The notes under the pieces were generated by a model. The model did no database searches, had not been told where the DNA came from, and saw only the letters and a list, made by a program, of their open reading frames with translations. This document shows, piece after piece, positions 2,356 through 18,496 of a stretch of 20,000 bases of DNA. The translations under genes were made by a program, and so were the position numbers. How positions within the stretch are numbered: position 1 is the stretch's first letter; each line of letters begins with the position of its first letter. This DNA comes from an uncultured virus (IMG/VR IMGVR_UViG_3300046524_000574) (taxonomy: Duplodnaviria; Heunggongvirae; Uroviricota; Caudoviricetes), in IMG/VR virus record IMGVR_UViG_3300046524_000574. One strand, given 5' to 3'.

Positions 2356-2362
2356 CTATACC
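2356..2362 (+). promoter_or_regulatory. CTATAC(G/C) upstream motif
   Basis: GCTATACCAC, 28 nt before ATG2390. Confidence 0.65.
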
Positions 2363-2389
2363 ACAGCAGACCTCAAGGTATACCGCCAA

Positions 2390-4339
2390 ATGTCCGCCAC
2401 ATCCACAGCTTTCCTTCGCAAGACCGTCCTCGCTGCTGCCCTGGCTGCCAGCATGTCCGCGTTCGCGTCCAACTATTACGTCGTCGTGCCGGTCCCCGCG
2501 CGCACTGACACGGGCGCCGCCAACATCTCCGTATCCCTGAACGCCTACACACCGCCCGCGGGTTTTGTAGGTGACGCCTACCCGGGTTTCGACTTCAACC
2601 AGGCGCTGCAAGTCACCGGCGACCAGAATTTCAATCCATCGAACGTGCGCTGGCAGGTCTCCGCCGGCGCGCTGCCTGCGGGGCTCACGCTGAACCCGAC
2701 CGGCAAACTCACCGGGACACCAACCGCAGCCGGTACATCAAGCTTCGTGGTCACGGCGGTATCCCGCACAAAATCGGGCACGAACACTTTTCAGGTCAGC
2801 GTGACGAACCTGCAGGTGAGTCTCGGCAGTGCGGCATTGCCGAATGCGACCCAGGGCGCAACGTACAGCTACGACATGAAGACGCGCCTGTCGGTGACCG
2901 GGGACTCGAGCTACTCGGGCGCAGGAGTCAGCTGGAGCATCGCGAGCGGCAACCCTCCCGCGGGCCTGAGCCTGGGCGCGGATGGTGTCATCACAGGTGT
3001 GGCCACCGCAGAAGGCACGTACCCGTTCACGGTGAGGGCCGCATATCGGACGAAGTCCGGCACCCAGGGCTATCAAGTTGTCGTCGGCGCCATCACGGTC
3101 GGCCTGCAATCGGCTACCTTGCCTGATGCGAAGCAGGGCACAGCTTACAGCTATGACCTCAAGACGCTGCTCACGGTCAGTGGCGACGCAGCCTACTCGA
3201 GCTCGGGCGTGAGCTGGAGCGTCACGAGTGGTGCGCTGCCCGCCGGCCTCAGCATCGGAGCCGATGGCGTCATCACGGGAAGTGCTACGGCCGAAGGTAC
3301 TTTTCCGTTCACGGTGAAGGCCGCGTACAAGACGAAATCGGGCACGCAGGGCTATCAGGTCGTGGTGGGCGCCATCACGGTCGCATTGGCCGCGGCCACG
3401 CCGCCGGGCGGCATCGTGGGCCTGGCCTATAACAATGGTTCGGGTTTCGACCTGAAGCCGTCGGTCAACGTGAACGGCGACGGTGCTTATGCCGGCACCG
3501 GCGCCGGCGTCACATGGTCGGTGACCGGAGGCGCGTTGCCCGCGGGCATGAGCCTCTCGACTGCCGGCGTCATTGGCGGCACGCCGACGACAACCGCGGT
3601 ATCGTCGACTGTCCAGGTGCAGGCCTCGTACAAGGGCAAGACTGCTACCCAGTCGTACTCGCTGCCCATCACTGGGTCCATCAAGCAGTTCAGCGGATAC
3701 CGCGCGTACGCGGACGGTACCTATGCGTCGACTTGCAATGCATATCGCAATCCGAGCGCGCCGCACTACTACCAGGGTGCCACGGGCGACGGCATTTATC
3801 GCATCACGCCGGGCGGTACGCCGTACGACGTGTACTGCGACATGACAACAAACGGCGGTGGCTACACCGTCATCGAAGCGCTGCACGACACCCGGTATTA
3901 CGCGGGCGCCAGCTTCAACGAAGCTCCCGCCGGCTCGCCGCCAGTTCCGGGTGAAGCGAACGGGTCGTACCTGACATCGTCGGTTGCAATTGCCCTGGCG
4001 AATCTGTCGTCGGAAGTGCGTATCTCCGAATACGGCACAAGTAACGCCGCCTGGACGACGAGCGCAACGATGCTGAACAACCTGCGCCAGGGGCTGCTCG
4101 CGAATTACAACACGCAAACGACTTACGACCCGACGTCACTGTGGTCGGTGAGCTCGGCGGGTCTCACGCAGTTCAATACTGCCCAGAGCATTGCCGGCAT
4201 GGGAGCCGACAACTACCCAACGATTTTCTGGTCGGGCGGCAACAGCAGCGGGCTGCATGTAACCGGCGGCGGTGGCGTCGCTAACGCATCGTGGCACTTC
4301 AACATCCAGAACGGTCCGATGGTCGTCAGCTACCGCTGA
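2390..4339 (+). CDS. Secreted putative-Ig (He_PIG-like) repeat protein with C-terminal fibrinogen-like (YCDxxxxGGGW-type) domain; probable adhesin
   Basis: Sec signal (RKTVLAAALAASMSAFA). Four ~94-aa units with W..G.LPAGL.L...G...G motif. Tip TCNAYR...GDGIYRI...VYCDMTTNGGGYT. ATG2390 chosen by comparison with the paralog at 11637. Confidence 0.85.
   Translation: MSATSTAFLRKTVLAAALAASMSAFASNYYVVVPVPARTDTGAANISVSLNAYTPPAGFVGDAYPGFDFNQALQVTGDQNFNPSNVRWQVSAGALPAGLTLNPTGKLTGTPTAAGTSSFVVTAVSRTKSGTNTFQVSVTNLQVSLGSAALPNATQGATYSYDMKTRLSVTGDSSYSGAGVSWSIASGNPPAGLSLGADGVITGVATAEGTYPFTVRAAYRTKSGTQGYQVVVGAITVGLQSATLPDAKQGTAYSYDLKTLLTVSGDAAYSSSGVSWSVTSGALPAGLSIGADGVITGSATAEGTFPFTVKAAYKTKSGTQGYQVVVGAITVALAAATPPGGIVGLAYNNGSGFDLKPSVNVNGDGAYAGTGAGVTWSVTGGALPAGMSLSTAGVIGGTPTTTAVSSTVQVQASYKGKTATQSYSLPITGSIKQFSGYRAYADGTYASTCNAYRNPSAPHYYQGATGDGIYRITPGGTPYDVYCDMTTNGGGYTVIEALHDTRYYAGASFNEAPAGSPPVPGEANGSYLTSSVAIALANLSSEVRISEYGTSNAAWTTSATMLNNLRQGLLANYNTQTTYDPTSLWSVSSAGLTQFNTAQSIAGMGADNYPTIFWSGGNSSGLHVTGGGGVANASWHFNIQNGPMVVSYR
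2810..3373 (+). repeat. Tandem 282-bp (94-aa) Ig-unit duplication
   Basis: Units 2 and 3 share TKSGTQGYQVVVGAITV and GADGVITG.ATAEGT.PFTV.AAY. Matching DNA at 3061 and 3343 (offset 282). Confidence 0.85.
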
Positions 4340-4358
4340 GCGGTACCGGGGCAAACAG

Positions 4359-4386
4359 AAAAACGCCGCGAGAGTCTCGCGGCGTT
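4359..4386. terminator. Hairpin terminator between convergent genes
   Basis: Perfect inverted repeat AACGCCGCGAGA-G-TCTCGCGGCGTT with an A-run on the left. Confidence 0.75.
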
Positions 4387-4389
4387 GAG

Positions 4390-4902
4390 TTAGTCAATCT
4401 GCCCAGCCTCTTTCAACCTTTCCGGGCGCAAAACCTTCCACAGTCGACGTAGGGCTAGCCCATCCGGGCAGTTTTTGCGAAGGTCGCAAATCCCGGAAAG
4501 GACGAACAAGGCTCCGAAAATCGACGCCGTATAAACGTGGCTATGCTGGACCAGCAGAAAAAACAACGGTCCCGCACATACGACCGACAATGGGCCAGCA
4601 AGGTACGTCACCAGCACCTGCCACGTGTCCGGAAAATTCCCTTCATCCACGAAAGTCGTGTGGCCCGAGGTAGGCAGCCAGCCCACGGTGATGGAATAGC
4701 CGAGCACAACTACCTTAAATATCGGCCTGGTTCCAATCCGGATTCCCGTTGACGGAACGCCAAGTAGCGCTCCAGCAACAGCATGGCCGCCTTCATGAAT
4801 GACGAGCATCATGTGCGAAAACAAGAAGTACACGCCAATCGTGAAGGGGTACTGCTTGACCGAATCTTCGATAGCCCACAAGAAAAACTGAAACGAAACC
4901 AT
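4390..4902 (-). CDS. Site-2 protease / M50-family membrane metallopeptidase
   Basis: IHEGGHA zinc motif in a hydrophobic segment, YLAGP, NCPDG (NPDG-like) third ligand, several TM stretches. Confidence 0.8.
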   Translation of the reverse strand: MVSFQFFLWAIEDSVKQYPFTIGVYFLFSHMMLVIHEGGHAVAGALLGVPSTGIRIGTRPIFKVVVLGYSITVGWLPTSGHTTFVDEGNFPDTWQVLVTYLAGPLSVVCAGPLFFLLVQHSHVYTASIFGALFVLSGICDLRKNCPDGLALRRLWKVLRPERLKEAGQID

Positions 4903-4980
4903 TTACGTACCTCAGCAATTGTCCTACCCAGTATAAGGGTCAAGGCGCGTGAAAGCCTTACGCAGCGAGACGGTAGCAAT

Positions 4981-5006
4981 AAAAAAGCGCCCCGAAGAAG
5001 GGCGCT
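4981..5006 (-). terminator. Intrinsic terminator of the 5029-5418 gene
   Basis: AGCGCCC-N7-GGGCGCT, with A6 on + (U-tract on -). Confidence 0.7.
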
Positions 5007-5028
5007 GAGTGAAGAGTTGGTCGACGAG

Positions 5029-5418
5029 TTACTGGTGGGCGCCTACGATGAAAATGCCCAGTTCGTTGGCCGTTTCTTTTGCCTCGGACTTGCGCATGTC
5101 CCACGGCTGGACCAGGTCGGAACCCGCTTCAGTCACGATGCGCCAGGCAGTCACGAACCAGCCACGCTTCGTGTTAAAGCGTTCCATGCGGTCACGCTTG
5201 AAGTAGCCGACCTTTTTGAAGCCGTCTTCACGCGGGCGGAATGTGTCCAACAGTTCCGCGCCGCCATTGTTGCGCAACTGCTGCAACAGGCACTGGTCGG
5301 AGGCGCTCGTGGTCACGGGATAAATACCGCACATCCAGCTCGAAAAGAGCCTGTCTTTCCAGCCACGTTTGTGTTCGAGAGCGAAACGGTTCAGGGCGTT
5401 AATTTGGTCGATGTTCAT
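5029..5418 (-). CDS. Hypothetical protein (129 aa)
   Basis: GAGGA RBS, own upstream motif and terminator. Confidence 0.75.
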   Translation of the reverse strand: MNIDQINALNRFALEHKRGWKDRLFSSWMCGIYPVTTSASDQCLLQQLRNNGGAELLDTFRPREDGFKKVGYFKRDRMERFNTKRGWFVTAWRIVTEAGSDLVQPWDMRKSEAKETANELGIFIVGAHQ

Positions 5419-5454
5419 GAGATTCCTCGCAAAATAGTAGTTGGCCTGCAGTCC

Positions 5455-5461
5455 CGTATAG
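5455..5461 (-). promoter_or_regulatory. CTATAC(G/C) upstream motif
   Basis: CCTATACG on -, 37 nt before ATG5418. Confidence 0.65.
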
Positions 5462-5479
5462 GCCGCGGCCGCCTGAATG

Positions 5480-5504
5480 AAAAAACCCGGGCAGGTGCCC
5501 GGGT
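5480..5504 (-). terminator. Intrinsic terminator of the 5526-6320 gene
   Basis: ACCCGGGCA-GG-TGCCCGGGT preceded by an A-run on +. Confidence 0.75.
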
Positions 5505-5525
5505 GCGAGGAGTTGCTGAGTCGAA

Positions 5526-6320
5526 TTACTTTGCCGGCTTCGGTGGCTTTTGCGGCAACAATGCGATTTCCGACATCTGGTAGATGAAGACTTCGACACT
5601 GCGCAACTTGAAACCGCCCGTTGAGCGACCGTGGTGGTTCTCGAACGAGGTGACCTTTGCCGACGGCAGCCGTTGGGCAAAGAGCTTCATGAGTGCGTCG
5701 CGGCTTGCGTCGCAGTCACGAATTTCCCAGTCACGGTCTTCCTCTTCGACCACAAAGCCTCGCTCCTGAAGACTCGCCAGCCACAGTGCCTTGCGCTCCT
5801 TATCCGACACGGGGGTATCCGACTGGAAGCTGAAATCGCCGAACAGCGAGCAGCTGAACTTCACCTTGCAGCCGTACTTGCCGAACGATAGGTCGTTGAT
5901 GTGACCGAAACCTTCAAGGTCCCACCAGCTGTTGAGCTGCTCATCGAGCTTCTGCAGGCAGGCTTTCGTCACGTCCGGGCCTTGCGCGGCACCAAGCTGG
6001 GATTCCAGCTCGCGTACGCGCATGTTCGCAGCACGGATACGCGCGAAACGTTGTTCTAGCTCCGCAGCCGAATCGGTCTCGATGGCCAACAGCTTACCCA
6101 GGTCGGCCATGCGGTGTTCGGCGAGCGACAGGCAATTGGTCGCAAGTCCACGCGGCAGGCCATCCTTGAACACGCTGCTGTCGGGCCCTTTGAGAGCGCT
6201 CGCCATAGTGCCCATCGCCTGCTGCAGCTCCAGGATTTGTCGCAACGCGACGGCCCGCTGGTCGGCGGTTACTGCAATGATGCTGTGGTCTTCGGGGGGA
6301 ATGCTGATTTCGAACGTCAT
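5526..6320 (-). CDS. Hypothetical protein with coiled-coil N-half (264 aa)
   Basis: AAAGGAA RBS before ATG6320 (MTFEISIPP); heptad-like segments. Confidence 0.8.
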   Translation of the reverse strand: MTFEISIPPEDHSIIAVTADQRAVALRQILELQQAMGTMASALKGPDSSVFKDGLPRGLATNCLSLAEHRMADLGKLLAIETDSAAELEQRFARIRAANMRVRELESQLGAAQGPDVTKACLQKLDEQLNSWWDLEGFGHINDLSFGKYGCKVKFSCSLFGDFSFQSDTPVSDKERKALWLASLQERGFVVEEEDRDWEIRDCDASRDALMKLFAQRLPSAKVTSFENHHGRSTGGFKLRSVEVFIYQMSEIALLPQKPPKPAK

Positions 6321-6353
6321 GATGTTCCTTTCATAAGTGAGTTGGCCTGACTC

Positions 6354-6360
6354 CGTATAG
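6354..6360 (-). promoter_or_regulatory. CTATAC(G/C) motif in the loop of a 10-bp inverted repeat
   Basis: GCTATACG on -, 34 nt before ATG6320; flanked by GTGAGTTGGC (6337-6346) and GCCAACTCAC (6364-6373). Confidence 0.65.
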
Positions 6361-6393
6361 CCCGCCAACTCACGGCGGCAATATCTTATTAAA

Positions 6394-6402
6394 TGGTATA
6401 CT
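6394..6402 (+). promoter_or_regulatory. Extended -10 promoter (TGnTATACT)
   Basis: TGGTATACT in an AT-rich spacer before GGAG RBS and GTG6434. Confidence 0.55.
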
Positions 6403-6433
6403 AAATCAGTTATCTATTCTGGAGTTATCGCAC

Positions 6434-7057
6434 GTGAGCACTGAATCAAACGAGTCCCCATCGTGGGGTTCGCGGCTATTGGGCACCGCAAAGACGGCGC
6501 TGACTTCGATATTCCCTGCGCTTGGTGCCGTTGACGCAGCCAGGGAATTCATCTCGGACGCTGTGGCACAGAAAATCCGTGACGAAGCCTGCGTCAAGGC
6601 TCAGGCGCTGATTGCGCAGGCGCACCGGAAGGTCATCTTCTCCATCGTCTGGCAGAACGGACTGCTCATGCTCTCGATGGTGCCGGTCTACTTCCTGCGC
6701 GCGCAATGGCCGTTCTATGTGGCGTACGCGTGCGTGTTCGGCTACTCCGCGTGGTCGGCATACGAGTATCGCGGCATCATCTGGCGCCTGTGCAAGACAC
6801 GCAGCGTGACTCAGACTCTCGCGCTCGAGGTTCGGGGAGCTATCGAGACCGAGCTGACGTCGCGTCAGTTCTACGAGCGTAAGGCCGTCGAATGGCTGGG
6901 CCCCGACATGAAGCGCCTGGCGGACGACGTCGCGCGTAAGCTCAAGCCCGACGTGCTGATGGCGGGCTTCAACATGGGCTTCACGCTTTTGACGGCTTTC
7001 CTGGCCTTCCGGGTGTTCGTGATTCCGCTGCTCGAGCATCGCGCACTTATGCATTGA
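6434..7057 (+). CDS. Hypothetical membrane protein (207 aa, ~3 TM)
   Basis: GGAG RBS; hydrophobic segments IVWQNGLLMLSMVPVYF, FYVAYACVFGYSAW, FTLLTAFLAFRVFVIP. Confidence 0.8.
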   Translation: MSTESNESPSWGSRLLGTAKTALTSIFPALGAVDAAREFISDAVAQKIRDEACVKAQALIAQAHRKVIFSIVWQNGLLMLSMVPVYFLRAQWPFYVAYACVFGYSAWSAYEYRGIIWRLCKTRSVTQTLALEVRGAIETELTSRQFYERKAVEWLGPDMKRLADDVARKLKPDVLMAGFNMGFTLLTAFLAFRVFVIPLLEHRALMH

Positions 7058-7091
7058 CCGGCGGTCCGCGTCCGGCCGTACCCGCGCGATA

Positions 7092-7120
7092 TGGACAAAA
7101 TAGCATTAAAACGCTATAGT
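7092..7120 (+). promoter_or_regulatory. Sigma70-type promoter of the ruvB operon
   Basis: TGGACA-17 nt-TATAGT. Confidence 0.65.
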
Positions 7121-7157
7121 ATTATTTCCTGCAACCAATCAGTAAAAAGCAAACAGT

Positions 7158-7544
7158 ATGAACACTGCAAGTGCACAAGGTCTCGTTTCGTTCGCCTTCG
7201 ACAAGGTCGTGGCCAGTCTGACCGCTGACGAGGTTCGCTGCGCGTTGTCCGCTGCAATGGGCGAGGGCGTGGCGCTGGTCCATGTCGCGTACCCGAGCGT
7301 GGACAGCCGCAACCACAAGAGCCTCGAATCGCTCGTGTCGCAGCTCTCCGGCCACGGTTTTACCGAAACGGCTGCGCTGGTCCACGAAGAAGTCCCATAT
7401 CTCGCATTCAAAGACCTGAGGGAAGCCTTGCACGTGTACCAGGAAATCCAGAAAGACTCGATGGCCATTTCTGCATCGCTGTACTACGGCGGCGTGAATG
7501 GACTGCGCGCCGAAGCTGCCATTCTGCAGGCTACCGGCCAATGA
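7158..7544 (+). CDS. Hypothetical protein translationally coupled to ruvB
   Basis: 128-aa ORF; ATGA overlap with ruvB at 7541-7544. Confidence 0.75.
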
Positions 7545-8758
7545 CCGCTGCGCCGCGCAAACGCCGCTCGAGCGCGAAGGCCAGTGCGGACGCCGCGCCG
7601 GCCGCGGTCGCACCCATCGTCTCTCCTGTTGCGCAAGCCGGTGAGCCGGTCGAAGACCGTGCGCTGCGCCCCAAGCGCCTCGCAGACTACATCGGTCAGC
7701 AGGCGCTGCGCGCGCAGCTTAGCATTTTCCTGAACGCGGCCAAGCATCGCGCTGAGGCGCTCGACCATGTACTGCTGTCCGGCCCGCCGGGCCTGGGCAA
7801 GACGACGCTCGCGCAAATCATCGCTGCCGAGCTCGGGGTCGGGCTCAAGGTGACAACGGGGCCGGTGCTCGAGAAGCCGGGTGACATCGCCGCGCTGCTC
7901 ACCGGACTCAATCCGCACGACGTGCTCTTCATCGACGAGATTCACCGGATGCCTCCCGTTGTTGAGGAAATGCTGTACCCGGCGATGGAAGACTACAAAC
8001 TCGACATCCTGGTCGGAGAAGGGCAGGAGGCCCGCACGGTGACCGTGCCGCTGGCTCCCTTCACGCTCGTTGGCGCCACCACGCGTGCGGGCAGTCTCTC
8101 TGCGCCACTGCGCGACCGCTTCGGTATTACCGGGCGCATGGAGTTCTACACCGACGAGGAGCTTGAGGCCATCGTGAACCGCTCGGCGGGGCTTCTGGGT
8201 GTGGGTATGGCCCCTGACGCAGCGCTCGAAGTAGCCCGGCGCTCGCGCGGCACGCCGCGTATTGCCAACCGGCTTCTGCGTCGTGTTCGCGACTACGCGA
8301 CGGTTCTCGGTGCAAACAAGAACGAAGTCGCCTCGCTCGATGCGCAGGCGGCACTTGCGATGCTCGGCGTCGACTCGCGCGGGCTGGATTCGATTGACCG
8401 CCGGCTGCTTCAGGCCATGGTCGATTTCTATAACGGCGGCCCGGTTGGCCTGAACACGCTTTGCGCTGCCATCAGTGAAGCGGAAGACACGGTGGAGGAT
8501 GCGGTCGAGCCGTTCCTCATTCAGCAGGGGCTTCTGCAGCGCACACCGCGCGGCCGCGTCATCACCGAGCTGGGTCGTGAGCATCTCGGCGCCTGTCCTG
8601 GTCAGCCACCCGTGCAGGCCTCGCGCGCTGGTGGCCCGGTGTATGTCGGCGGTATCCATCCGGCCGGGCAAGGGAAGGGCGCAGTGCTGAAGCTGGACCC
8701 GAGTGGCCTTGGTGTCGTGCGGGACCCGAAAACGGGCGAATACCTTCCGACCTATTGA
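7541..8758 (+). CDS. ruvB: Holliday junction branch-migration AAA+ ATPase RuvB with N- and C-terminal extensions
   Basis: LRP..L.DYIGQ, Walker [10 protein letters not shown], Walker [53 protein letters not shown]. Confidence 0.97.
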
Positions 8759-8780
8759 ATACATAAACCGGAGCCAGAAG

Positions 8781-9044
8781 ATGACTCGACTCAAGCAGAT
8801 GACCCACGGCATGGATGTCGCGTTCTATGAGCGGCTCGCTGTGGTTTTCGCTTACTACGGCGCGATTGTGGCGACGGGTCGTTTCTGGTTGGTTCCGGCG
8901 TTTGTCTGGATGGACCAGCACCATCCCCAGGCTCATGAATACGCGGTGTGGGCCGCGGTCTTGCCGCTTTCGCTTATCGGCGCGGTGCTTCTTGCCCGGA
9001 CGCTTACCGCGCCGGCGCCGGCGCATACCCAACACGTGAGGTGA
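8781..9044 (+). CDS. Small membrane protein (87 aa, 2 TM)
   Basis: GGAG RBS at 8770-8773; two hydrophobic stretches. Confidence 0.65.
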   Translation: MTRLKQMTHGMDVAFYERLAVVFAYYGAIVATGRFWLVPAFVWMDQHHPQAHEYAVWAAVLPLSLIGAVLLARTLTAPAPAHTQHVR

Positions 9045-9049
9045 CCAAA

Positions 9050-9484: not shown

Positions 9485-9491
9485 CCAAAGG

Positions 9492-9498
9492 CTATACG
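9492..9498 (+). promoter_or_regulatory. CTATAC(G/C) upstream motif
   Basis: GCTATACG, 49 nt before ATG9547. Confidence 0.6.
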
Positions 9499-9546
9499 CT
9501 CAGGTAGGAACAATTAAACTTGAGTGAATAGCCCAGAGGACACATC

Positions 9547-10047: not shown

Positions 10048-10069
10048 CACACTCTGAAGCAGCATCTCG

Positions 10070-10099
10070 AGCCCAGCAATCTTGCTGGGCTTTTTCTTT
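10070..10099 (+). terminator. Intrinsic terminator
   Basis: AGCCCAGCAA-TC-TTGCTGGGCT followed by a T-tract. Confidence 0.8.
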
Positions 10100-10142: not shown

Positions 10143-10149
10143 CTATACC
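10143..10149 (+). promoter_or_regulatory. CTATAC(G/C) upstream motif
   Basis: CTATACC, 52 nt before the proposed TTG10201. Confidence 0.5.
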
Positions 10150-10498: not shown

Positions 10499-10510
10499 GA
10501 GTTTGTAGCT

Positions 10511-10891: not shown

Positions 10892-10928
10892 AATGTTTGC
10901 CTCCAATGGGCAGCTATTTCCACATAGC

Positions 10929-10935
10929 CGTATAG
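10929..10935 (-). promoter_or_regulatory. CTATAC(G/C) upstream motif
   Basis: GCTATACG on -, 38 nt before ATG10891. Confidence 0.65.
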
Positions 10936-10992
10936 CGCGAAATGAGGCACAATCGCGAGCATCGGAGGTGTTCGCTGTTACGCGATTCCGTT

Positions 10993-10999
10993 CTATACG
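10993..10999 (+). promoter_or_regulatory. CTATAC(G/C) upstream motif
   Basis: CTATACG, 33 nt before ATG11032; within TTCCGT-N5-ACGGAA. Confidence 0.65.
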
Positions 11000-11031
11000 G
11001 AACGTGGCAACAATCAACTAGCGAGGAAGCT

Positions 11032-11520: not shown

Positions 11521-11544
11521 TACACCGTTTCCGCAACACCTCAG

Positions 11545-11569
11545 ACCCCGCTTAACTGCGGGGTTTTTT
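11545..11569 (+). terminator. Intrinsic terminator
   Basis: ACCCCGC-N6-GCGGGGT followed by a T-tract. Confidence 0.8.
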
Positions 11570-11603
11570 ATTGCAATGTCGACTGCGTCTCAACCGTTTT
11601 GAG

Positions 11604-11610
11604 CTATACC
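11604..11610 (+). promoter_or_regulatory. CTATAC(G/C) upstream motif
   Basis: GCTATACCAC (same decamer as at 2355), 27 nt before ATG11637. Confidence 0.65.
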
Positions 11611-11636
11611 ACGGATGCCCCTTTTTCGCGTCGACC

Positions 11637-13571
11637 ATGCACATCTCGAACCTCTTTAAAGCCTCGCTGCTGACCGCGGCGCTCGCGGCAAGCCTTCCGG
11701 CCTTCGCCTCCGATTATTACGTCGTCGTCCCGGTGCCCAATCACACCGCGGCCGGGAATGTATCTGTTTCGCTATCGGGATTCGGGTTGCCTGCGGCGCA
11801 GGTCGGCCTGCCGTACGCAGGCTTTGACTTCAAATCGCTGCTTTCGGTCACCGGGGACGCCAGCTACAACGGTTTTGGCGTTCGTTGGAGTGTGGCTTCC
11901 GGCAGCCTGCCGGCGGGGCTGACGCTCAACGGCGACGGCACGCTCACCGGTACGCCCACCGCGGGTGGCTCGTCGACCTTCCAGGTGATGGCCAGCTACA
12001 AGAGCAAGGCCGGCCAGCAGACCTACCAAATTTTCACGGCCGCCATCACGGTCGGGCTTGCGGCGGGCGCGCCGCCACGGGGCTTGGTCGGCCAGACCTA
12101 TAGCTATGACCTGCGGCCGCTCCTGTCGGTCTCTGGCGACTCGGCGTACACCGGCGCCGGCGTGACGTGGACTGTGGTTTCCAACACATTGCCCGCGGGC
12201 CTGTATCTCACGAGCGACGGCTTCATTGGCGGCACGCCGACCGCGTCCGGCACGGGCAGTGTCACCGCGCGCGCGACGTACAAGGGCGTCAACGGCCAGC
12301 AAACCTATCAGGTGGTCACCCAGGCCATCAACGTCACGCTCGGCAGCACGGACCTGCCTGCCGCGTCGCAGGGACTTCCATACGCAGGCTATGACTTCCG
12401 CTCGCTCGTCAGCAGCAACGACCCGACTTTCCAGACGGGCAGCACGACCTGGTCGGTGGTCGACGTGCTTCCCGCGGGCCTGGCGCTCGACGCGAGTGGG
12501 GTGCTTAGCGGAACGCCCACGGCGTCCGGCGCGCAGACATTCACGCTCAAGGCGAGTTACAAGGGCACCGTAGGCCAACAGACCTACGCGCTCGTCAGCG
12601 CACCCAGCTCGCTCGTCACCACGGCTTCGTCGTCGCTCGACTTCTCATCGGTCAGCGACTACACGACCGTCACGAGGTCGGTCACGCTGACCAACGCTGG
12701 CGATGCGACCGGAACCCTGTCGCTTGCCTCCGATTCGTCGAACTTCACCGTCAGCGGCTGCGCCACGATTCCCGCGAAGGGCGCGTGCACCGCGACGGTC
12801 TCGTTCTATCCGACGGGAGTCACCAGCTACACGGGCAAGCTGAGCATCACGGGCGCGACCAGTGGTGCCATCACGGTGCCGCTCACTGGCTCGGCCATCA
12901 CCAACGTCCAGACGTTCACCGCGAGCACGTCATGGACAATCCCGGCGCGGCTCACGAGCGTGAAGGTGCTCGTGGTTGGCGGCGGCGGCGGCGGCGAGGC
13001 CCTTGGCGGCACGGTGAGTGGCGGGCTGGGCGGTATCGGCGGTGGCGGTGGAAAGGTGCTCTACAACGCCAGCTACGCCGTCACGCCGAACTCCACAGTT
13101 CCGGTGACGATTGGCACGGGAGGTGACGTCGGCCCCGACGCAGGCCAGGACGGACTGCCTTCTGCTTTTGGCTCGCTCCAGGCGGTCGGTGGCATCTCCG
13201 GCTATACGACAGGCGCATCTGGCAACGGCTTCCCGGCAGGCGGCGTCATGACCACGACGCTCCAGGGGCCGGGCGGCGGCGGGGCAGGTGGTGCCGGCGG
13301 CGCGCCGAACGCGACGTTCGGCGGCAAGGGTGGCGCGGGCGTCTGCAATGACATTACCGGCACTTCAACCTGCTACGGTGGTGGCGGCGGGGGTGGCACC
13401 TTCGTCGACAACGTGACCCAGGCTGCAGGCGGCATCGGTGGCGGCGGTATTGGTGGCACGCTGTCCGTGTCGGGCGTAGGCGGGACACCTAACACTGGCG
13501 GTGGCGGTGGCGCTGGTGGCGGGGGTGGCCGCGGGGGTGGCGGCACTGGCGTCGTGATTGTCGCCTACTGA
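11637..13571 (+). CDS. Secreted putative-Ig repeat protein with ASH/choice-of-anchor-D-like domain and glycine-rich C-terminal domain; probable adhesin
   Basis: Signal KASLLTAALAASLPAFA. Three LPAGL Ig units. ASH-like LDFSSV...VTLTNAG...CATIPAKGACTATVSFYP. Tip TFTASTSWTIP...KVLVVGGGGGG...GGTGVVIVAY. Confidence 0.85.
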   Translation: MHISNLFKASLLTAALAASLPAFASDYYVVVPVPNHTAAGNVSVSLSGFGLPAAQVGLPYAGFDFKSLLSVTGDASYNGFGVRWSVASGSLPAGLTLNGDGTLTGTPTAGGSSTFQVMASYKSKAGQQTYQIFTAAITVGLAAGAPPRGLVGQTYSYDLRPLLSVSGDSAYTGAGVTWTVVSNTLPAGLYLTSDGFIGGTPTASGTGSVTARATYKGVNGQQTYQVVTQAINVTLGSTDLPAASQGLPYAGYDFRSLVSSNDPTFQTGSTTWSVVDVLPAGLALDASGVLSGTPTASGAQTFTLKASYKGTVGQQTYALVSAPSSLVTTASSSLDFSSVSDYTTVTRSVTLTNAGDATGTLSLASDSSNFTVSGCATIPAKGACTATVSFYPTGVTSYTGKLSITGATSGAITVPLTGSAITNVQTFTASTSWTIPARLTSVKVLVVGGGGGGEALGGTVSGGLGGIGGGGGKVLYNASYAVTPNSTVPVTIGTGGDVGPDAGQDGLPSAFGSLQAVGGISGYTTGASGNGFPAGGVMTTTLQGPGGGGAGGAGGAPNATFGGKGGAGVCNDITGTSTCYGGGGGGGTFVDNVTQAAGGIGGGGIGGTLSVSGVGGTPNTGGGGGAGGGGGRGGGGTGVVIVAY

Positions 13572-13593
13572 CCTGCCTGGCAGTTAACACGAG

Positions 13594-13660
13594 CGCCTGT
13601 TCTTCGGAGCAGGCGTTTTTCTTTTGTCTCGCGAAAAGAAAACGGCCGCGCGGGCCGTTT
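13594..13660. terminator. Back-to-back terminators for convergent genes
   Basis: CGCCTGTTC-TTCG-GAGCAGGCG plus T-tract (+; cUUCGg loop), then A-run plus AAACGGCC-N5-GGCCGTTT (-). Confidence 0.8.
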
Positions 13661-13674
13661 GAGAGGGGTTATGC

Positions 13675-13995
13675 CTAGAGCAAACGAACGTATTTCGCAG
13701 CGTTCGGCATCGAGACATTGAGCCGGTCTCGAAATTTCACACACGCCGCGGAAGGGCTGTGATGCTTCAGTTCGCGACATTCGTCGAGAAGCCGCTCGAA
13801 CTCCTCGAGCGTGATGATGAGCCCTACCCGCAACGCTTCCCACCATTTCCGCGCCAACAATGCGCGGTCTTCGGCAGTTTCAGCACTGCGCAGCGCCTCG
13901 AGCTCTTCCTGGAGCCCGGCCGCGCGCTGATGTAGTTCAGCCAGCTCAGAGTCAAGCTGCTGGATACGCATCTGACGTTGTTCCGGTGCGCTCAT
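13675..13995 (-). CDS. Hypothetical coiled-coil protein (106 aa)
   Basis: Heptads IQQLDSELAELHQRAAGLQEELEAL; starts 1 nt after the upstream stop. Confidence 0.75.
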   Translation of the reverse strand: MSAPEQRQMRIQQLDSELAELHQRAAGLQEELEALRSAETAEDRALLARKWWEALRVGLIITLEEFERLLDECRELKHHSPSAACVKFRDRLNVSMPNAAKYVRLL

Positions 13996-13996
13996 C

Positions 13997-14197
13997 TCAG
14001 TCTTCCTGTTGGCTGCGCATCGACAGGAATTTTCCGTCCTTGTCGAAGTTGAAAATCGTCATGCCGGTGACCCGCTGGTCCCCGCGGCAGATGATTTGAT
14101 GACCCAGTTCATTGTTGATGCATTCGACACCAAAGTCAGCAAGCAGTGCCTGCAGCTTTTCCTTGTGTGTTGCTGCCTCGCGCGATTGCGTACTCAT
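13997..14197 (-). CDS. Hypothetical protein (66 aa)
   Basis: AAGGAG RBS before ATG14197. Confidence 0.7.
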   Translation of the reverse strand: MSTQSREAATHKEKLQALLADFGVECINNELGHQIICRGDQRVTGMTIFNFDKDGKFLSMRSQQED

Positions 14198-14227
14198 GGC
14201 CACTCCTTTTTTGTGTTTGCCTGCAAT

Positions 14228-14234
14228 CGTATAG
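14228..14234 (-). promoter_or_regulatory. CTATAC(G/C) upstream motif
   Basis: GCTATACG on -, 31 nt before ATG14197. Confidence 0.65.
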
Positions 14235-14255
14235 CTGAACGCCAGGCGGCGCGCC

Positions 14256-14292
14256 AAAAGAAAACCTCCACGGCATGGCTGCGCGTGGAGGT
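14256..14292 (-). terminator. Intrinsic terminator of the 16723-14309 operon
   Basis: ACCTCCACG-N11-CGTGGAGGT with A-runs on +. Confidence 0.7.
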
Positions 14293-14308
14293 GGTGAGGT
14301 GCTACGTG

Positions 14309-14680
14309 TCAGCCGCAGAGATACTCCTCGACTGCGATGACGGTCTGACGTGCATCGTCGACAGCTACGCGAGTGGCAGCCTGAACTGCTTCCTCGGTGC
14401 CGGCAACCTTGCCGCTGGCGATTTGACCTTCGATGAGCTGCGTGGCAACCGAACGGATGCGTTGCTGGCTGTCTTCCGGATAGAGCGACAGCCGACACAT
14501 GCACGCGTCTAAGGTGACAACGACCTGGCAAGCCTCCATGAAAGCCTGGTGCATTGCCGCCTTGAGGCCTGCGTCGGTCTCTTCAACCGTGCCGTGGTCG
14601 AGCTTCCCTTCAAGAAGTCGGGTGAGCGTCGCCTTGATGCGCGGTTGCTGTTCTTCGGGATACCCTGACAACTTTGACAT
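14309..14680 (-). CDS. Hypothetical protein made of two internal ~60-aa repeats
   Basis: LSGYPEEQQPRIKATLTRLLEG versus LSLYPEDSQQRIRSVATQLIEG; GGAGA RBS. Confidence 0.78.
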   Translation of the reverse strand: MSKLSGYPEEQQPRIKATLTRLLEGKLDHGTVEETDAGLKAAMHQAFMEACQVVVTLDACMCRLSLYPEDSQQRIRSVATQLIEGQIASGKVAGTEEAVQAATRVAVDDARQTVIAVEEYLCG

Positions 14681-14690
14681 GAACTCTCCG

Positions 14691-15056
14691 TTATATCCTG
14701 AGACCCGAACCCGTGAGCAGTGCCACATCCCCAACGACAGGATGCAGCCTTGCGTTTTCGCCCGCGTGGCCTGCGTGACCCGGCAGCTTCGTCGTCCAGA
14801 TTTCCTTGACGCCTTCACGCTGCTCCTGCTCGGTGAGCTCGCGCACACCAAACAGGATGCCGTAGTCGTACGAGTAGCTCACGCGGCGGCCGCTCCAGTC
14901 TTCGCCCGGATACGTGTGGGGCAGAATCATGTCGAGTGTCACAGCGTGCAACTTTGCTTTGACAATCGCGCGGGCACGTGTGCGTGCCGTTGCGCGGAAC
15001 ATCGTCGCGCCGCGGCAGATAGGCCATTGAAGCCAGACTTCAGCAACAAAGCTCAC
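14691..15056 (-). CDS. Hypothetical protein (121 aa)
   Basis: GTGA overlap with the upstream gene; fills the operon gap. Confidence 0.65.
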   Translation of the reverse strand: MSFVAEVWLQWPICRGATMFRATARTRARAIVKAKLHAVTLDMILPHTYPGEDWSGRRVSYSYDYGILFGVRELTEQEQREGVKEIWTTKLPGHAGHAGENARLHPVVGDVALLTGSGLRI

Positions 15057-15496
15057 GCTGACACCTCGTCACCATAAATCGCGACGACACGCAGCACCCA
15101 GAACCAGTAGTCCCGTGGGCTGTCAGCGCATTCTTCGGCCAGCGGCCAGTTACCGCGCGGATGCGTCAGGTGCTCGCCGAGCTCGTTGCCGTTCGCATGC
15201 TTGTCGATGAGCGCCTGAACCTTCACGTCCAGTTCCTTGCGCACACGACTTGCAATGTCGAGCAGCCACTTTTCCTGCTTTTCCGACAGCGGCAGGTACG
15301 AGTTCAGGCGCTGCTGACAGTTGCGAACGAGACTGCGCTCGTTTTCCGCGAGCGTCTCGCATGCTTCCTGACAGAGGTTGAGCTCACGCCGTAACATCTT
15401 TTCGTGTGCCGCGGCTTTCGCCTCCGCTGCTTCGCGTTCAACGCGCATCTGCTCGCGCCATACCGGGTCGTTCAGTTTCTTGAAATCAACACCCAT
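15053..15496 (-). CDS. Hypothetical protein, paralog of 15529-16068
   Basis: GGAGG RBS; YLPLSEKQEKWLLDIA and GEHLTHPRGNWPL...YWFWVL. Confidence 0.8.
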   Translation of the reverse strand: MGVDFKKLNDPVWREQMRVEREAAEAKAAAHEKMLRRELNLCQEACETLAENERSLVRNCQQRLNSYLPLSEKQEKWLLDIASRVRKELDVKVQALIDKHANGNELGEHLTHPRGNWPLAEECADSPRDYWFWVLRVVAIYGDEVSA

Positions 15497-15528
15497 GACT
15501 TCCTCCGTTATCGTTTATTGTCCGTGGG

Positions 15529-16068
15529 CTACATGTGAAGTTCTTCGCGAGTCACCTCGCCGCTCTCCACCCTGTCCGCGCAGTTGCCACACAGGCCATC
15601 CCAGCCATCGCCGTCGAGCTGGGCACCGCATTCATCGCAGTGCTCTTCGTTGCCGCCGTTACGCTCGATTTCGCTGAGCGCCCAGTGCCAGTACGCCGTG
15701 GGCGGAAGGCCCTTGGCGTCACGAAGCGGCCAGTTCGAGCGCGGATACGTCGGATGCTCTCCATCAGCGTTTCCATTCGCCCAGCGCTGGACGAGCCGGT
15801 CGATTTCTTCGGCCACATCCTCTGCAGAGCGGCGTGCGATGTCGAGCAGCCACGTCTGCTGTGCTGCCGTGAGCGGCAGGTATGTTTTGAGCCGCGAACG
15901 ACTGGACTTCACGAGACCGGTTTCCTGGTCCGAGAGTTCGTCGCGCGCAGCGAGACATACGTGAACCGCTGCACGCAACGTGTTGTGCTTGCGAAGCTGT
16001 GCTTTGGTCAGCGCATCACGGTTTTTCTGCACTTCGGCGTCGGTCAGCTGCTTGTCGTTGTGTGCCAT
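15529..16068 (-). CDS. Hypothetical protein with GEHP-YPR-W...YW-W motif and C-terminal CxxC-CxxC zinc ribbon
   Basis: YLPLTAAQQTWLLDIA, GEHPTYPRSNWPL...YWHWAL, CDEC...CGNC. Confidence 0.8.
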   Translation of the reverse strand: MAHNDKQLTDAEVQKNRDALTKAQLRKHNTLRAAVHVCLAARDELSDQETGLVKSSRSRLKTYLPLTAAQQTWLLDIARRSAEDVAEEIDRLVQRWANGNADGEHPTYPRSNWPLRDAKGLPPTAYWHWALSEIERNGGNEEHCDECGAQLDGDGWDGLCGNCADRVESGEVTREELHM

Positions 16069-16087
16069 TTTTCTATCCTCAGGGTTG

Positions 16088-16723
16088 TCATTCGAAATAA
16101 AAACGGGGCGTCGTCAGCGCGATGAAGCAGGTCTGGTCCGCGAGGTCCCCTACCTGTTCCTTCTTTGCGGTATTCACGTACTCGATGACCCCGAAACCGC
16201 GGGCCACCAGAATGTCGCGGTACGCGCGTGCGATATTTACCTTCAGCAGTTCCTTGGCTGGGTCACCCTTGAGCACGCTCACGAGCTGCCAGTCCCGGTC
16301 CTGCTCCAGCTTGTCGAGACAGGCTTGCGAGCTCGCGTGGCCGGTTTCGGCTGCATACCGAGCGAGCAGCTCGGGGCACTCAGTGAGCACCACCTTGCCG
16401 ATGTCGTATGCAAGCGCGAAGTAGTCCGTGCCAAACAGGCCCACCCAGTAGTGATGCACCGGGTGTGTCAGGCGACTTATCGGGCCCGGAAACTTCGCGA
16501 AATGCTGGTCCACCGTGTAGACGGCGCCAGCAAGCTTCACCGGAATGACCCGGCCGCCCGTGCGCTTGCCGTTACCGTTTCGCCCCGGATTTTTCAGGGC
16601 AAACTTGTTGGCGAGCGCCGGTGTCTTCGAAAAATGGGGTCCGACCATGCGGTCGATTGACGAGTTGCCCGGCGCGAACGTGTCGAAATCGACCTTCGTG
16701 CCGTGATAACCAATGATTTCCAT
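16088..16723 (-). CDS. ADP-ribosyltransferase-like protein (YHGT type, ART-PolyVal-like)
   Basis: GYHGT...F.TF, GPHFS...A..FA, GRVIPVKL, and C-terminal RGFGVIEYVN...E...TCFIAL; GGAGGT RBS. Confidence 0.7.
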   Translation of the reverse strand: MEIIGYHGTKVDFDTFAPGNSSIDRMVGPHFSKTPALANKFALKNPGRNGNGKRTGGRVIPVKLAGAVYTVDQHFAKFPGPISRLTHPVHHYWVGLFGTDYFALAYDIGKVVLTECPELLARYAAETGHASSQACLDKLEQDRDWQLVSVLKGDPAKELLKVNIARAYRDILVARGFGVIEYVNTAKKEQVGDLADQTCFIALTTPRFYFE

Positions 16724-16760
16724 ACCTACATACCTCCAGATGTGTTGTTTCCTCTGGAGT

Positions 16761-16767
16761 CGTATAG
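16761..16767 (-). promoter_or_regulatory. CTATAC(G/C) upstream motif
   Basis: CCTATACG on -, 38 nt before ATG16723; within GTCGTAT-N6-ATACGAC. Confidence 0.65.
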
Positions 16768-16886
16768 GGAAATACGACGGCCCGAACTTACCCGAAAGTT
16801 GACAAAGGCTTATTGTACGATATGCGCTGTTCGGCCGCCAGTGTGATGCTCAGGCATAACACTGATGGAGGCTACTATCACAAACG

Positions 16887-16893
16887 CTATACG
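16887..16893 (+). promoter_or_regulatory. CTATAC(G/C) upstream motif
   Basis: GCTATACG, 27 nt before ATG16920. Confidence 0.65.
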
Positions 16894-16919
16894 CTGGACC
16901 AACCATCAAGGAATTCTCC

Positions 16920-17225
16920 ATGGATGACCACATGCGTGAGCTGTACCAGAAGCTGATGCGCGAGCCGGTCTACCGTGCCCGCGCCACAAAAACCCGCAAA
17001 AAGAAGCTCGAGCAGCGTGTTTATTCGCTCATCACGGCCGTGCTGCTTTTCGGCCTGTTCGGCTCGGGCGCGGTCTGGGAGCTGCAAGGCCCCGATACGT
17101 TCTGGTTTGGGGTGGCGGCCTCGGTCGTCGCGCTCTATAGCCTCGCGGCCTTCCTGATTGACTGGCCGGTCCTCGCCATCGACCTGCGCGCGCGGGAAGC
17201 GGTCGACACCGGCTCGCGCGGCTGA
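16920..17225 (+). CDS. Small 2-TM membrane protein, paralog of 18524-18844
   Basis: Basic N-helix, two TMs, ALYSLAAFLIDWPVLAIDLRAR; AAGGA RBS. Confidence 0.78.
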   Translation: MDDHMRELYQKLMREPVYRARATKTRKKKLEQRVYSLITAVLLFGLFGSGAVWELQGPDTFWFGVAASVVALYSLAAFLIDWPVLAIDLRAREAVDTGSRG

Positions 17226-17253
17226 GCCCTCCTTGCCAGGCGCGCCGCCAATG

Positions 17254-17284
17254 AAAAAACCGCGACCCTTGTGAGGCCGCGGTT
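17254..17284 (-). terminator. Intrinsic terminator (possibly bidirectional)
   Basis: A6 then CCGCG...CGCGGTT hairpin between convergent genes. Confidence 0.6.
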
Positions 17285-17306
17285 GAGTTGCATCTTGAGT
17301 CCGAGG

Positions 17307-18395
17307 TTAAGCCGGAGCCGCCATCATTGCCTCGCGCAATGCGACAGCACGCTCCAGCTTGCCCTTGGCGAGTCTCTGGTAGTCATCCTTGTTGGTCTTC
17401 ACGTACGCATTCGCGCCCGTGGCCACGACAAAATCGCGCAGCACATCCATCGCGAGCAGGTAGTGCGACAGGTCCAGATAGTTCAGGGCGTCGGTCATGC
17501 CCAGCCATATCGAGGATGCCGGCTGCGTCAGGCTGTCTTCGAACGCGAACGCGAGATAGATGCAGAATGACAGGCCGTACTGCTCGCCCATCCCCAGCAT
17601 GAACCACGCGATGTCCGAACGACGGCCGTGGCGCTCAATCGACACATCCCAGCTGCCTTCCCAAAGCCCATACTCGGCACCCATCACGCGGTGTACGAGT
17701 GTGTTGGTGCGCGCCGTGATGCGCGCGCGCTCCGGATGGTTCACGAGCCGGTCAATCCACACTTGCGTGTCGGCGACCCGCACAAACGGATGCGTGACGG
17801 TGGTCACGAAATCGCGTGGCGCCGGCTCGAAACAGTGCGGGTCCATGCGCTGGACTTCGAACAGCGGCAGCGTCTCCGATGCGCGCGGTTCGCCGAACGC
17901 GTTGGCAAGCCTTGCCTTCAGTTCGTCCGGCCGGCACACGATTTTTCGAACGCCACGCGTTTCATGCAGGAGGTTGAACGCCACTTCCTGGTTGCCCGGC
18001 ACCTTCAGCCAGTCATCCAGGTCCACGAGATACAGGTAAGCGTGAGGACCACACCAGTCTTCGGACTTATCCAGCCACATCCCGATTTTCAGGCGAAAGG
18101 TCTCGACGGCGACATCCTGCCACGCCTTCGAGGTGCCGCGGGCACGCCAGCGCTCGACTTCCGAGGCCGCCTTCGCTTCGGCCGCAGTACCGAGTAGCTC
18201 GGTGAGCGACACGAACACGACGCCGCCCGGTTTGGCCGGCACCGGCTCAACCAGATGCACGAGCCCTTCTTTCTCGACACCCGAGAGCCCCAGTTGCGTG
18301 AGCAACTCGAGAATGCGCGCGGGTCCGGTTTCATCCGGCGCCGGCAAGTTGTAGTCATAGTGCGTTTGGCGAATCTGAAGCCAATTAGACGACAT
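17307..18395 (-). CDS. Hypothetical protein (362 aa)
   Basis: GGAGG RBS, long ORF, no motif recognised. Confidence 0.82.
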   Translation of the reverse strand: MSSNWLQIRQTHYDYNLPAPDETGPARILELLTQLGLSGVEKEGLVHLVEPVPAKPGGVVFVSLTELLGTAAEAKAASEVERWRARGTSKAWQDVAVETFRLKIGMWLDKSEDWCGPHAYLYLVDLDDWLKVPGNQEVAFNLLHETRGVRKIVCRPDELKARLANAFGEPRASETLPLFEVQRMDPHCFEPAPRDFVTTVTHPFVRVADTQVWIDRLVNHPERARITARTNTLVHRVMGAEYGLWEGSWDVSIERHGRRSDIAWFMLGMGEQYGLSFCIYLAFAFEDSLTQPASSIWLGMTDALNYLDLSHYLLAMDVLRDFVVATGANAYVKTNKDDYQRLAKGKLERAVALREAMMAAPA

Positions 18396-18427
18396 ATTTT
18401 CCTCCAGTTATTGAACGTTCCTGAAGA

Positions 18428-18434
18428 GGTATAG
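18428..18434 (-). promoter_or_regulatory. CTATAC(G/C) upstream motif
   Basis: GCTATACC on -, 33 nt before ATG18395. Confidence 0.65.
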
Positions 18435-18489
18435 CTTTCAGATGCCGGCGCGCCGCCGGCTACGCATCGGACATGACGCGGTGCCTGAG

Positions 18490-18496
18490 CTATACC
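18490..18496 (+). promoter_or_regulatory. CTATAC(G/C) upstream motif
   Basis: GCTATACC, 28 nt before ATG18524. Confidence 0.65.

Follow-up and report, generated by a model that had tools for sequence, protein, structure and literature searches.

Plasmids are generally assumed to depend on the promoters of their hosts. In bacteriophage T4, the late promoters consist of a short element, TATAAATA, which is read by gp55 together with gp33 and the gp45 clamp on the host core polymerase and is invisible to the host holoenzyme, while in the cytoplasmic killer plasmids of yeast, pGKL1/2, a 6-nt upstream conserved sequence precedes every open reading frame (ORF) and is read by a plasmid-encoded RNA polymerase. 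Single-subunit polymerases of the T7-like type recognise ~17-23 conserved bases spanning the start site. Among bacterial sigma factors, T at position -7 is essential for groups 1-3, and the -10 element of the RpoS (sigma-38) type in Gamma- and Betaproteobacteria, CTATACT or CTAcacT, has C at -13 as its hallmark, a degenerate -35 and an A/T-rich stretch after it. Here we describe the use of a hexamer, CTATAC (the box), in 20,000 nucleotides of DNA deposited as the uncultured virus IMG/VR record IMGVR_UViG_3300046524_000574; this whole stretch is referred to as the window. The evidence presented below leads us to think that the box, in the form (G/C)CTATAC(G/C)(G), is probably the default promoter core in one family of giant elements, which resemble conjugative plasmids, bear tRNA arrays and belong to hosts of Burkholderiales type, and that it is read by something other than sigma-70 alone.

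Counting both strands, the 20 kb of the window contain 14 copies of CTATAC, compared with a mean of 1.69 copies (standard deviation 1.29, maximum 6) in dinucleotide-preserving shuffles, and 14 or more copies were seen in 0 of 200 such shuffles. A preliminary description, made from the letters of the window, had placed thirteen of these copies upstream of start codons and the fourteenth in coding sequence; all 14 coordinates were reproduced, and the thirteen distances from box to start codon came out the same when recomputed. The box lies on the strand of the downstream gene at 13 of 13 sites, the start codons behind it are ATG in twelve cases and TTG in one (10201), and a Shine-Dalgarno-like word stands ahead of 11 of these 13 starts. 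G precedes the box at 9 of the 13 sites, in agreement with the earlier count. The following base had been reported as G or C without exception, and so it is at all 13 sites, and likewise at the coding copy, but this is a local property of the window, since in the wider family described below the following base is G in 40%, C in 26%, T in 21% and A in 12% of cases. It is equally true of the window that T is never found at this position (0 of 13), which would be -7 if the box sits where a -10 element does, and neither CTATACT nor TATAAT occurs anywhere in its 20 kb. The fourteenth copy (13202..13207, plus strand) falls inside the coding region 11637-13571 and is most likely due to chance, because about 1.7 chance copies are expected, the location is coding and no start codon comes after it.

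The gene map of the window shows ~19 transcription units, 13 with an exact box and another four headed by one-mismatch variants at the equivalent position (GTATAC, TTATAC, CTATAG and ATATAC). Genes internal to operons are without a box, for example within the four-to-five-gene unit headed by the minus-strand box at 16762, and three back-to-back pairs of boxes separate divergent genes. Intrinsic terminators number 33 where 18.7 are expected, and several boxes start 13-40 nt after the end of one, while a scan of the window for sigma-70-type promoters gave two sites against 4.1 expected by chance. Given that terminators abut the boxes and that the sigma-70 scan is at chance, the box is the sole recurrent element between terminator and start codon. 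CTATAC is very probably a promoter core. The tight spacing also bears on a rival suggestion, that the box serves an element-wide DNA-binding protein as its operator, acts as a signal in the 5' leader RNA or is the target of a methyltransferase. Many methylase sites are likewise short and asymmetric, and a DNA methyltransferase tops the conservation (71%) with the cultured megaplasmid pSRS16-1, which is introduced below; but a methylation site would not be expected to keep strictly to the sense strand at a median of 32 nt from the start codon, a leader signal needs an upstream promoter for which there is no room, and the stretch from terminator to start codon offers no other conserved promoter candidate, and we consider any function of this kind highly improbable.

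Relatives of the window were obtained from a metagenome scan with an alignment of its two paralogous He_PIG proteins, which returned 21 loci (L081-L101) on contigs of up to 507,881 and 572,366 bases, of which L089 and L091 are syntenic with the window. Loci L081-L100 hold 146 copies of CTATAC at densities of 2.8-29 per 20 kb, mostly 8-16; proteobacterial ruvB loci of GC content above 0.55 (641,010 bases) have 1.8 per 20 kb. Of the 146 copies, 120 are followed in sense by an ORF start at 15-80 nt, as against 55 in the opposite orientation; by the same criterion 13 control hexamers gave 18-59% and TATAAT, a real promoter word, 12 of 14. Enrichment upstream of genes, which the preliminary description had named as a check, is very strong, CTATAC being the top hexamer between -75 and -10 of 277 family genes (65 against 4.2 expected, z 29.6). 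What did not survive was the idea of a regulon devoted to adhesins and toxin-like enzymes: the box heads almost all units in the window, and in the family it also precedes parE, thioredoxin, traD, ihfA, porin and mgtC genes, and hence it does not mark such a regulon.

The box is also conserved in place. At 10 orthologous promoters it is kept in L089 and/or L091 while the upstream flanks diverge, in comparisons where the proteins are 68-80% identical between window and L089 and 48-68% between window and L091; even the variants TTATAC and GTATAC are retained as variants at orthologous sites. The first box of the window (2356..2361, plus) is 28 nt from ATG 2390 of a gene for a secreted He_PIG/fibrinogen-like protein (2390-4339) and is kept in L089, as is the box at 5456..5461 (minus), which begins 13 nt past the T-tract of a terminator (5504-5485) and is 37 nt from ATG 5418 of the gene for a 129-aa protein (phrog_16815). 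Both L089 and L091 keep the box at 9492..9497 (plus, 49 nt to ATG 9547), where the flanks have diverged, and that at 10930..10935 (minus, 38 nt to ATG 10891), which stands back-to-back with the box at 10993. Four others are included in the ortholog alignment: 6355..6360 (minus), 34 nt from ATG 6320 of the gene for a 264-aa orphan protein; 10143..10148 (plus), 52 nt from TTG 10201 of an 84-aa ORF, the least certain of the starts; 10993..10998 (plus), 33 nt from ATG 11032; and 11604..11609 (plus), 27 nt from ATG 11637 of the second He_PIG paralog, with a glycine-rich domain, which begins 28 nt past a terminator T-tract (stem 11543-11566).

In the right half of the window the box at 14229..14234 (minus) is 31 nt from ATG 14197 and heads a two-gene unit (13997-14197 and 13675-13995), and that at 16762..16767 (minus), kept in L091, is 38 nt from ATG 16723 and heads four or five genes (16088-16723, 15529-16068, 15053-15496 and downstream ORFs) with no internal box. 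The product of the leading gene here (16088-16723) has counterparts of similar size at L087:8542-9189 and L091:17047-17691; these proteins of 211-215 aa give weak, sub-threshold matches to the ART-PolyVal ADP-ribosyltransferases, a polyvalent-protein domain, and head an operon behind a CTATAC box. The box at 16887..16892 (plus) is 27 nt from ATG 16920. Finally, the boxes at 18429..18434 (minus, 33 nt to ATG 18395 of the gene for a 362-aa orphan) and 18490..18495 (plus, 28 nt to ATG 18524) are arranged back-to-back, and the former is kept ahead of both L091 paralogs.

Of the variants, GTATAC (6396..6401, plus, 32 nt to GTG 6434) and TTATAC (4931..4936, minus, 28 nt to ATG 4902 of an M50-like peptidase gene) each have the identical variant in L089, and a possible ATATAC (19277..19282, minus, 58 nt to a start at 19218) is the weakest case. 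CTATAG at 7114 (plus, 38 nt to ATG 7158) overlaps a sigma-70-type promoter, TGGACA-17-TATAGT (7092..7120, plus; 10 of 12 matches), which precedes an ORF at 7158-7544 and ruvB at 7541-8758; the L089 ortholog of this promoter reads TTGACA-17-TATATT. The RuvB equivalog encoded here (7158-8758 region) has an N-terminal extension of ~40 aa, is without a ruvA partner and is joined by an ATGA overlap to the 128-aa orphan ORF before it; this arrangement is kept in L089, and the promoter ahead of it is the only strong one of sigma-70 type in the window.

The nature of the DNA is best judged from its gene content. Megablast against phage records found no phage relative of the window, and scans of viral contigs with the 362-aa orphan, the 129-aa protein and the He_PIG alignment likewise found no relative. 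The window encodes a sensor kinase, a LuxR-type response regulator, the two secreted He_PIG paralogs, the M50-like peptidase and the RuvB equivalog, the rest being orphans, and tRNA and Rfam scans found no tRNA and no Rfam match in it. Related contigs carry an F-type TraD coupling protein, a TraG-like P-loop protein, KfrA_N, a weak TrfA match and PcfJ, and an array of 22 tRNA genes adjoins TraD at L081:535-2917. This array is tightly packed and includes duplicates (Glu three times, Trp, Asp and Gly-GCC twice each), and a near-perfect TTGACA-16-TATACT (11 of 12 matches; ~L081:3510, minus) faces it from ~560 nt upstream with no ORF in between. The TraD protein is nearest (52%) to that of ~800-kb Variovorax plasmids, and ParE is nearest to copies on Burkholderia and Caballeronia megaplasmids (67-70%, as against ~57% for chromosomal ParE). 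We conclude that the window belongs to a giant, plasmid-like element whose host is of Burkholderiales type.

The contigs might alternatively be chromosomes of an uncultured lineage in which CTATAC is the housekeeping -10 element. They reach 572 kb and carry further information-processing genes (parE, clpX, nrdB, CCA enzyme, rtcB/rtcR, ligD and ihfA) besides ruvB, tatA, chemoreceptors and pilus genes, and the RuvB of the window is just 58-66% identical to 80 relatives kept from species genomes. Yet the transfer and replication genes listed above and the 22-tRNA array are plasmid hallmarks, no ribosomal-protein or core-metabolism gene turned up in ~330 kb, only 65 of 270 family ORFs have an NCBIfam match at 1e-10 (and 124 of 150 ORFs without one also have no Pfam match at 0.01), ParE is nearest to plasmid copies, and TraD is among proteins common to a proven plasmid of a cultured Variovorax, 62 of 313 having a match there. 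A chromosomal origin thus seems to us scarcely credible.

Several protein families of these elements deserve mention. The secreted He_PIG paralogs (window 2390-4339 and 11637-13571) share an N-terminus, AFAS(N/D)YYVVVPVP, and many members end in a fibrinogen-like YCDxxxxGGGW or a glycine-rich domain; seven lie in tandem at L086:4491-17063. The 264-aa orphan (5526-6320) has 96 homolog clusters, some of them from cultured Burkholderia ubonensis (63%), Ralstonia, Paraburkholderia, Pseudomonas and Massilia and often on contigs of 590-640 kb, those of B. ubonensis having the nearest homologs among isolates, and tblastn matches it on 184 plasmid records that include pMPPla107, Pseudomonas aeruginosa plasmids of IncP-2 size and Bacillus plasmids; it is a widespread megaplasmid core protein, if an orphan in function. 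The 362-aa orphan was not found in 401 sampled Burkholderiales genomes. The non-coding right end of the window (19419-19677) contains imperfect 35-nt inverted repeats (77% complementary) around 189 nt, with three ~20-nt direct repeats (CGnTTTTTGGAAATGCC-like, 70-100% identical) in or beside the 189-nt stretch, the third overlapping the right arm of the inverted repeat; these could be an iteron-like origin, a partition site or a small mobile element.

The preliminary description considered the motif private to the element, and we compared it with chromosomes and other megaplasmids using the identical gene-calling and hexamer pipeline, with chromosome samples of ~200 kb each. CTATAC precedes none of 175 genes in Aquabacterium (G005), none of 174 in Paraburkholderia (G002) and none of 146 and of 148 in two relatives of Xylophilus (G409 and G416; GC 69%), and in these four samples CTACAC occurs 1-3 times per sample where 1.1-1.5 are expected. 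In the ruvB loci CTATAC lies upstream of 4 of 617 genes (1.7 expected), and TATAAT ranks first, as it should. Counted over whole genomes, five Burkholderiales have CTATAC at 0.5-2.2 per 20 kb, no higher than the reversed-word control. The megaplasmids pBVIE01 of Burkholderia vietnamiensis and pMPPla107 of Pseudomonas resemble the family in being large and orphan-rich and in sharing ParE (67-70%) or the 264-aa orphan (46%), but differ in showing no enrichment of CTATAC, with 68 copies against 149 control copies in the former and 131 against 295 in the latter (upstream of 441 genes of pMPPla107, 5 against 2.0 expected). Burkholderia gladioli bgla_3p, a Cupriavidus pauculus plasmid and P. silesiensis pPL1 have no CTATAC excess, and the 264-aa orphan, present in 1 of 213 Paraburkholderia genomes (46% identical), lies there on a contig without promoter-like use of the box. 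It is accordingly likely that CTATAC is specific to this family of elements rather than a general host signal; the claim of a private class stands in so far as the class is distinct, element-wide and not upstream of genes in the sampled Burkholderiales chromosomes, but the privacy itself rests on proxy chromosomes. As a separate observation, the 300-700 kb region of pMPPla107 has enriched upstream words of its own, TATATT, ATATTG, TATTGA and ATTGAC, which overlap into ATATATTGAC (TATATT, 32 against 3.3 expected, z 15.9, for 441 genes), and these may represent a different plasmid-wide promoter architecture.

A cultured relative extends the comparison. The tRNA-carrying megaplasmids of linuron-degrading Variovorax, namely pSRS16-1, pPBL-E5-1, pWDL1-1 and pPBL-H6-1, are described in the main text of Ozturk et al. 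(2020, PMC7313664), according to which pSRS16-1 has 801.4 kb, 50 tRNA genes in one array and a GC content of 62.5% against 67.3% for the chromosome. As there described, these plasmids resemble our family in being giant, with a single tRNA array, F-type transfer genes and mostly hypothetical genes; their GC content is below that of the host (PMC7313664). The relationship is distant. We took NZ_LR594667.1 as pSRS16-1, and 62 of 313 family proteins have a tblastn match on it (E<1e-6), with TraD 52% and orphan proteins 30-57% identical; the visible family loci show KfrA_N and a weak TrfA match, a RepB-ParAB module being the replication module of the Variovorax group. A 10-kb piece of pSRS16-1 was not found in 201 relatives of G001. 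The most conserved of the shared proteins is the methyltransferase already mentioned, an Mrr_N + N6_N4 DNA methyltransferase (L097:10813-12147; 71% over 408 aa); that it might be linked to the asymmetric CTATAC is only a thought.

On pSRS16-1 a box of the same kind predominates, relaxed to CTAnAC with G or C as the next base. Upstream of its 807 genes CTACAC ranks first (59 against 6.8 expected, z 20) and CTATAC second (43 against 4.4, z 18), followed by CTATAG, CTAGAC and CTAAAC, so that the middle position, fixed as T in the family of the window, is variable there. An ORF start follows 105 of 147 copies of CTATAC at 15-80 nt in sense and 36 of 147 in antisense, and at 396 CTAnAC sites the median gap is 32 nt and the next base is G in 49%, C in 31%, A in 13% and T in 7%. 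Over the whole plasmid SCTAYACS is only weakly raised (239 copies against 220 control copies, where chromosomes give a ratio of ~0.5), because CTACAC is common in coding sequence. The main text of PMC7313664 makes no mention of promoter, sigma, RNA polymerase or motif, and in the literature searched, including the main texts of PMC7313664, PMC12613071 and a 2025 preprint on Enterobacteriaceae megaplasmids, we found no description of this promoter class.

How the box might function is suggested by its surroundings. When 155 unique sites of the window and its related loci are combined into a matrix, no position upstream of -1 stands out, which bears out the earlier statement that there is no shared -35; the matrix has G before the box in 54% of sites and G as the second base after the box in 52%, and information at only 6-8 positions, far fewer than a T7-like promoter would display. 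At CTATAC(N) sites the best -35 match averages 2.45-2.67 (background 2.30), with matches of at least 4/6 in 9-16% of sites where the next base is T, C or A and in 30% where it is G, whereas 41-58% of (A/G)TATACT sites in the family reach that level against a background of 9%. Promoters of the form TTGACA-N16/17-TATACT thus occur in the same elements with TATAC in -10 register, and from these ordinary promoters we infer that CTATAC occupies the same register, which puts its first C at -13, its first T and A at -12 and -11, its last C at -8 and the G or C that follows at -7. Since canonical TTGACA-N17-TATA(C/G/T)T promoters coexist with sites that have C at -13, no -35 and no T at -7, there are two promoter classes, and the latter sites form, as far as sequence can tell, a separate promoter-like class. 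T at -12 and A at -11, as sigma-70 demands, are invariant by definition of the word, and the hallmark T at -7 is found in 0 of 13 window sites, 21% of family sites and 7% of those on pSRS16-1. In this register the box (C -13, TATAC -12 to -8, G/C -7) would work without a -35, and transcripts starting a few bases after it would begin with a 5' leader of just 20-45 nt that has a Shine-Dalgarno site at its end.

Two host factors could in principle read such a box. Sigma-70 might do so directly, using it as a deliberately weak -10 element helped by G at -14, which would allow cheap upkeep of hundreds of genes. The register fits, TTGACA-N16/17-TATACT promoters are present in the same elements and G precedes the box in 54% of sites; but sigma-70 would not be expected to preserve a weak element letter for letter between proteins 48-80% identical, nor to shun T at -7, the C at -13 never varies although the sites that bear a -35 have A or G there, and the upstream words in host-type controls are TAnAAT-like. 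This version of events is very improbable. The other candidate is an RpoS-like alternative sigma factor of the host, to whose specification the plasmids would build nearly all of their promoters, and plasmid genes would then follow the stress or stationary-phase programme of the host. CTATAC and CTACAC equal the RpoS-type -10 from -13 to -8, that is, C at -13 and TAYAC at -12 to -8, there is no -35 box beyond what a degenerate one would require, no sigma gene was found on pSRS16-1, and the chromosome samples are too small to rule out a small host regulon. The likeness ends at the right-hand edge of the box: position -7 shows no enrichment of T in the family (21%), a depletion of it on pSRS16-1 (7%) and no T at all in the window (0 of 13), and the bases that follow are G-rich (second base G in 52%) rather than an A/T-rich stretch such as TAA. 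Moreover, CTATAC lies upstream of 0 of 643 genes in the four chromosome samples and CTACAC is at about chance there. We therefore think it unlikely that an RpoS-like factor is responsible, and a host alternative sigma of whatever kind is only slightly less doubtful as the reader.

With no -35, no T at -7, absence from the sampled chromosomes and canonical promoters alongside, the reader is probably not the host housekeeping holoenzyme alone, and that sigma-70 unaided reads the box is very unlikely. An element-encoded reader is possible, if at somewhat less than even chances, and the form of it that we prefer would be the host core RNA polymerase with an element-encoded, sigma-like specificity factor that is too diverged for Pfam, in the manner of T4 gp55. 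More tentatively, the system may amount to a phage-like takeover of transcription by giant conjugative plasmids of soil Burkholderiales, in which a plasmid factor that escapes current profiles redirects host core polymerase to a private, -10-only promoter with C at -13 and G or C at -7. Hundreds of plasmid genes would then be insulated from host sigma-70 and RpoS, and the few canonical sigma-70 promoters, such as those of the tRNA array and the ruvB unit, would be a host-read 'early' set. Two leads were set aside: the 264-aa orphan, whose atlas look-alikes score only 0.76-0.77, and the ORFs of pSRS16-1 behind sigma-70-like promoters, taken as 'early' genes, none of which is common to the family except one AAA-like protein.

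A number of results weigh against this interpretation as a whole. The preliminary description had proposed an element-encoded sigma factor or RNA polymerase, and none was found in the window, in ~330 kb of related contigs or on the complete pSRS16-1, for which reason an element-encoded reader can only be inferred. Sigma or polymerase families did not turn up among 23 window proteins, 30 large family ORFs and 150 further ORFs, and 30 lenient re-scans of family ORFs found none; on pSRS16-1 there was no match to Sigma70_r2, Rpb1 or Rpb2, and Sigma70_r4 gave only sub-threshold helix-turn-helix matches. The PF00940 polymerase profile had no match on pSRS16-1, but the search is uninformative because this profile matched no control genome either, and Pfam, PHROGs and NCBIfam found no gp55-like sigma factor in the ~330 kb visible, although diverged factors can escape profiles. 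The controls for privacy are Burkholderiales genomes that stand in for the host chromosomes of the contig and of pSRS16-1, and samples of 200 kb would miss a host regulon below ~2% to a few per cent of genes. The box is also sparse in places, with just three copies in the 21 kb of L084 and none in L101, a distant match (33% identity). On the side of method, the 15-80 nt start criterion is lenient, as the values reached by control hexamers demonstrate, and the gene calls used for hexamer counts came from a crude GC3-based script. Lastly, the four sequencing runs that contain DNA of the window, all labelled rhizosphere metagenome, are DNA runs, and no RNA run contains it.

If these elements do carry their own promoter code, plasmids of 0.5-0.8 Mb control their own expression as large phages do, and a private code would bear on plasmid cost, host range and silencing. 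Of more immediate use, CTAYAC followed by G or C at ~30 nt before start codons is a marker by which this family of elements may be recognised and binned in soil metagenomes, and with a harmless carrier in culture, namely Variovorax with pSRS16-1 or pWDL1-1, the question of the reader is open to direct testing.

None of the described systems is matched in every respect. Promoters of the RpoS type have letters identical to the box from -13 to -8, an invariant C at -13 and no conserved -35, and the commonest forms on pSRS16-1, CTATAC and CTACAC, are the two RpoS-type -10 forms; but the box is without an enriched T at -7, is followed by G-rich sequence and, instead of marking a stress regulon, stands before almost all the units of an element. 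The yeast plasmids pGKL1/2 differ in being eukaryotic, cytoplasmic and equipped with their own polymerase, a gene for which was not found here, but they offer the same picture of one short private word placed before the units of an extrachromosomal element. The late promoters of T4 have a different sequence, belong to a phage rather than a plasmid, and depend on a gp55 of which no counterpart was found here. In architecture, however, they come close, the box appearing, like them, to be a single short element at the -10 position that dispenses with a -35, is used throughout the element and stands beside ordinary sigma-70 promoters.

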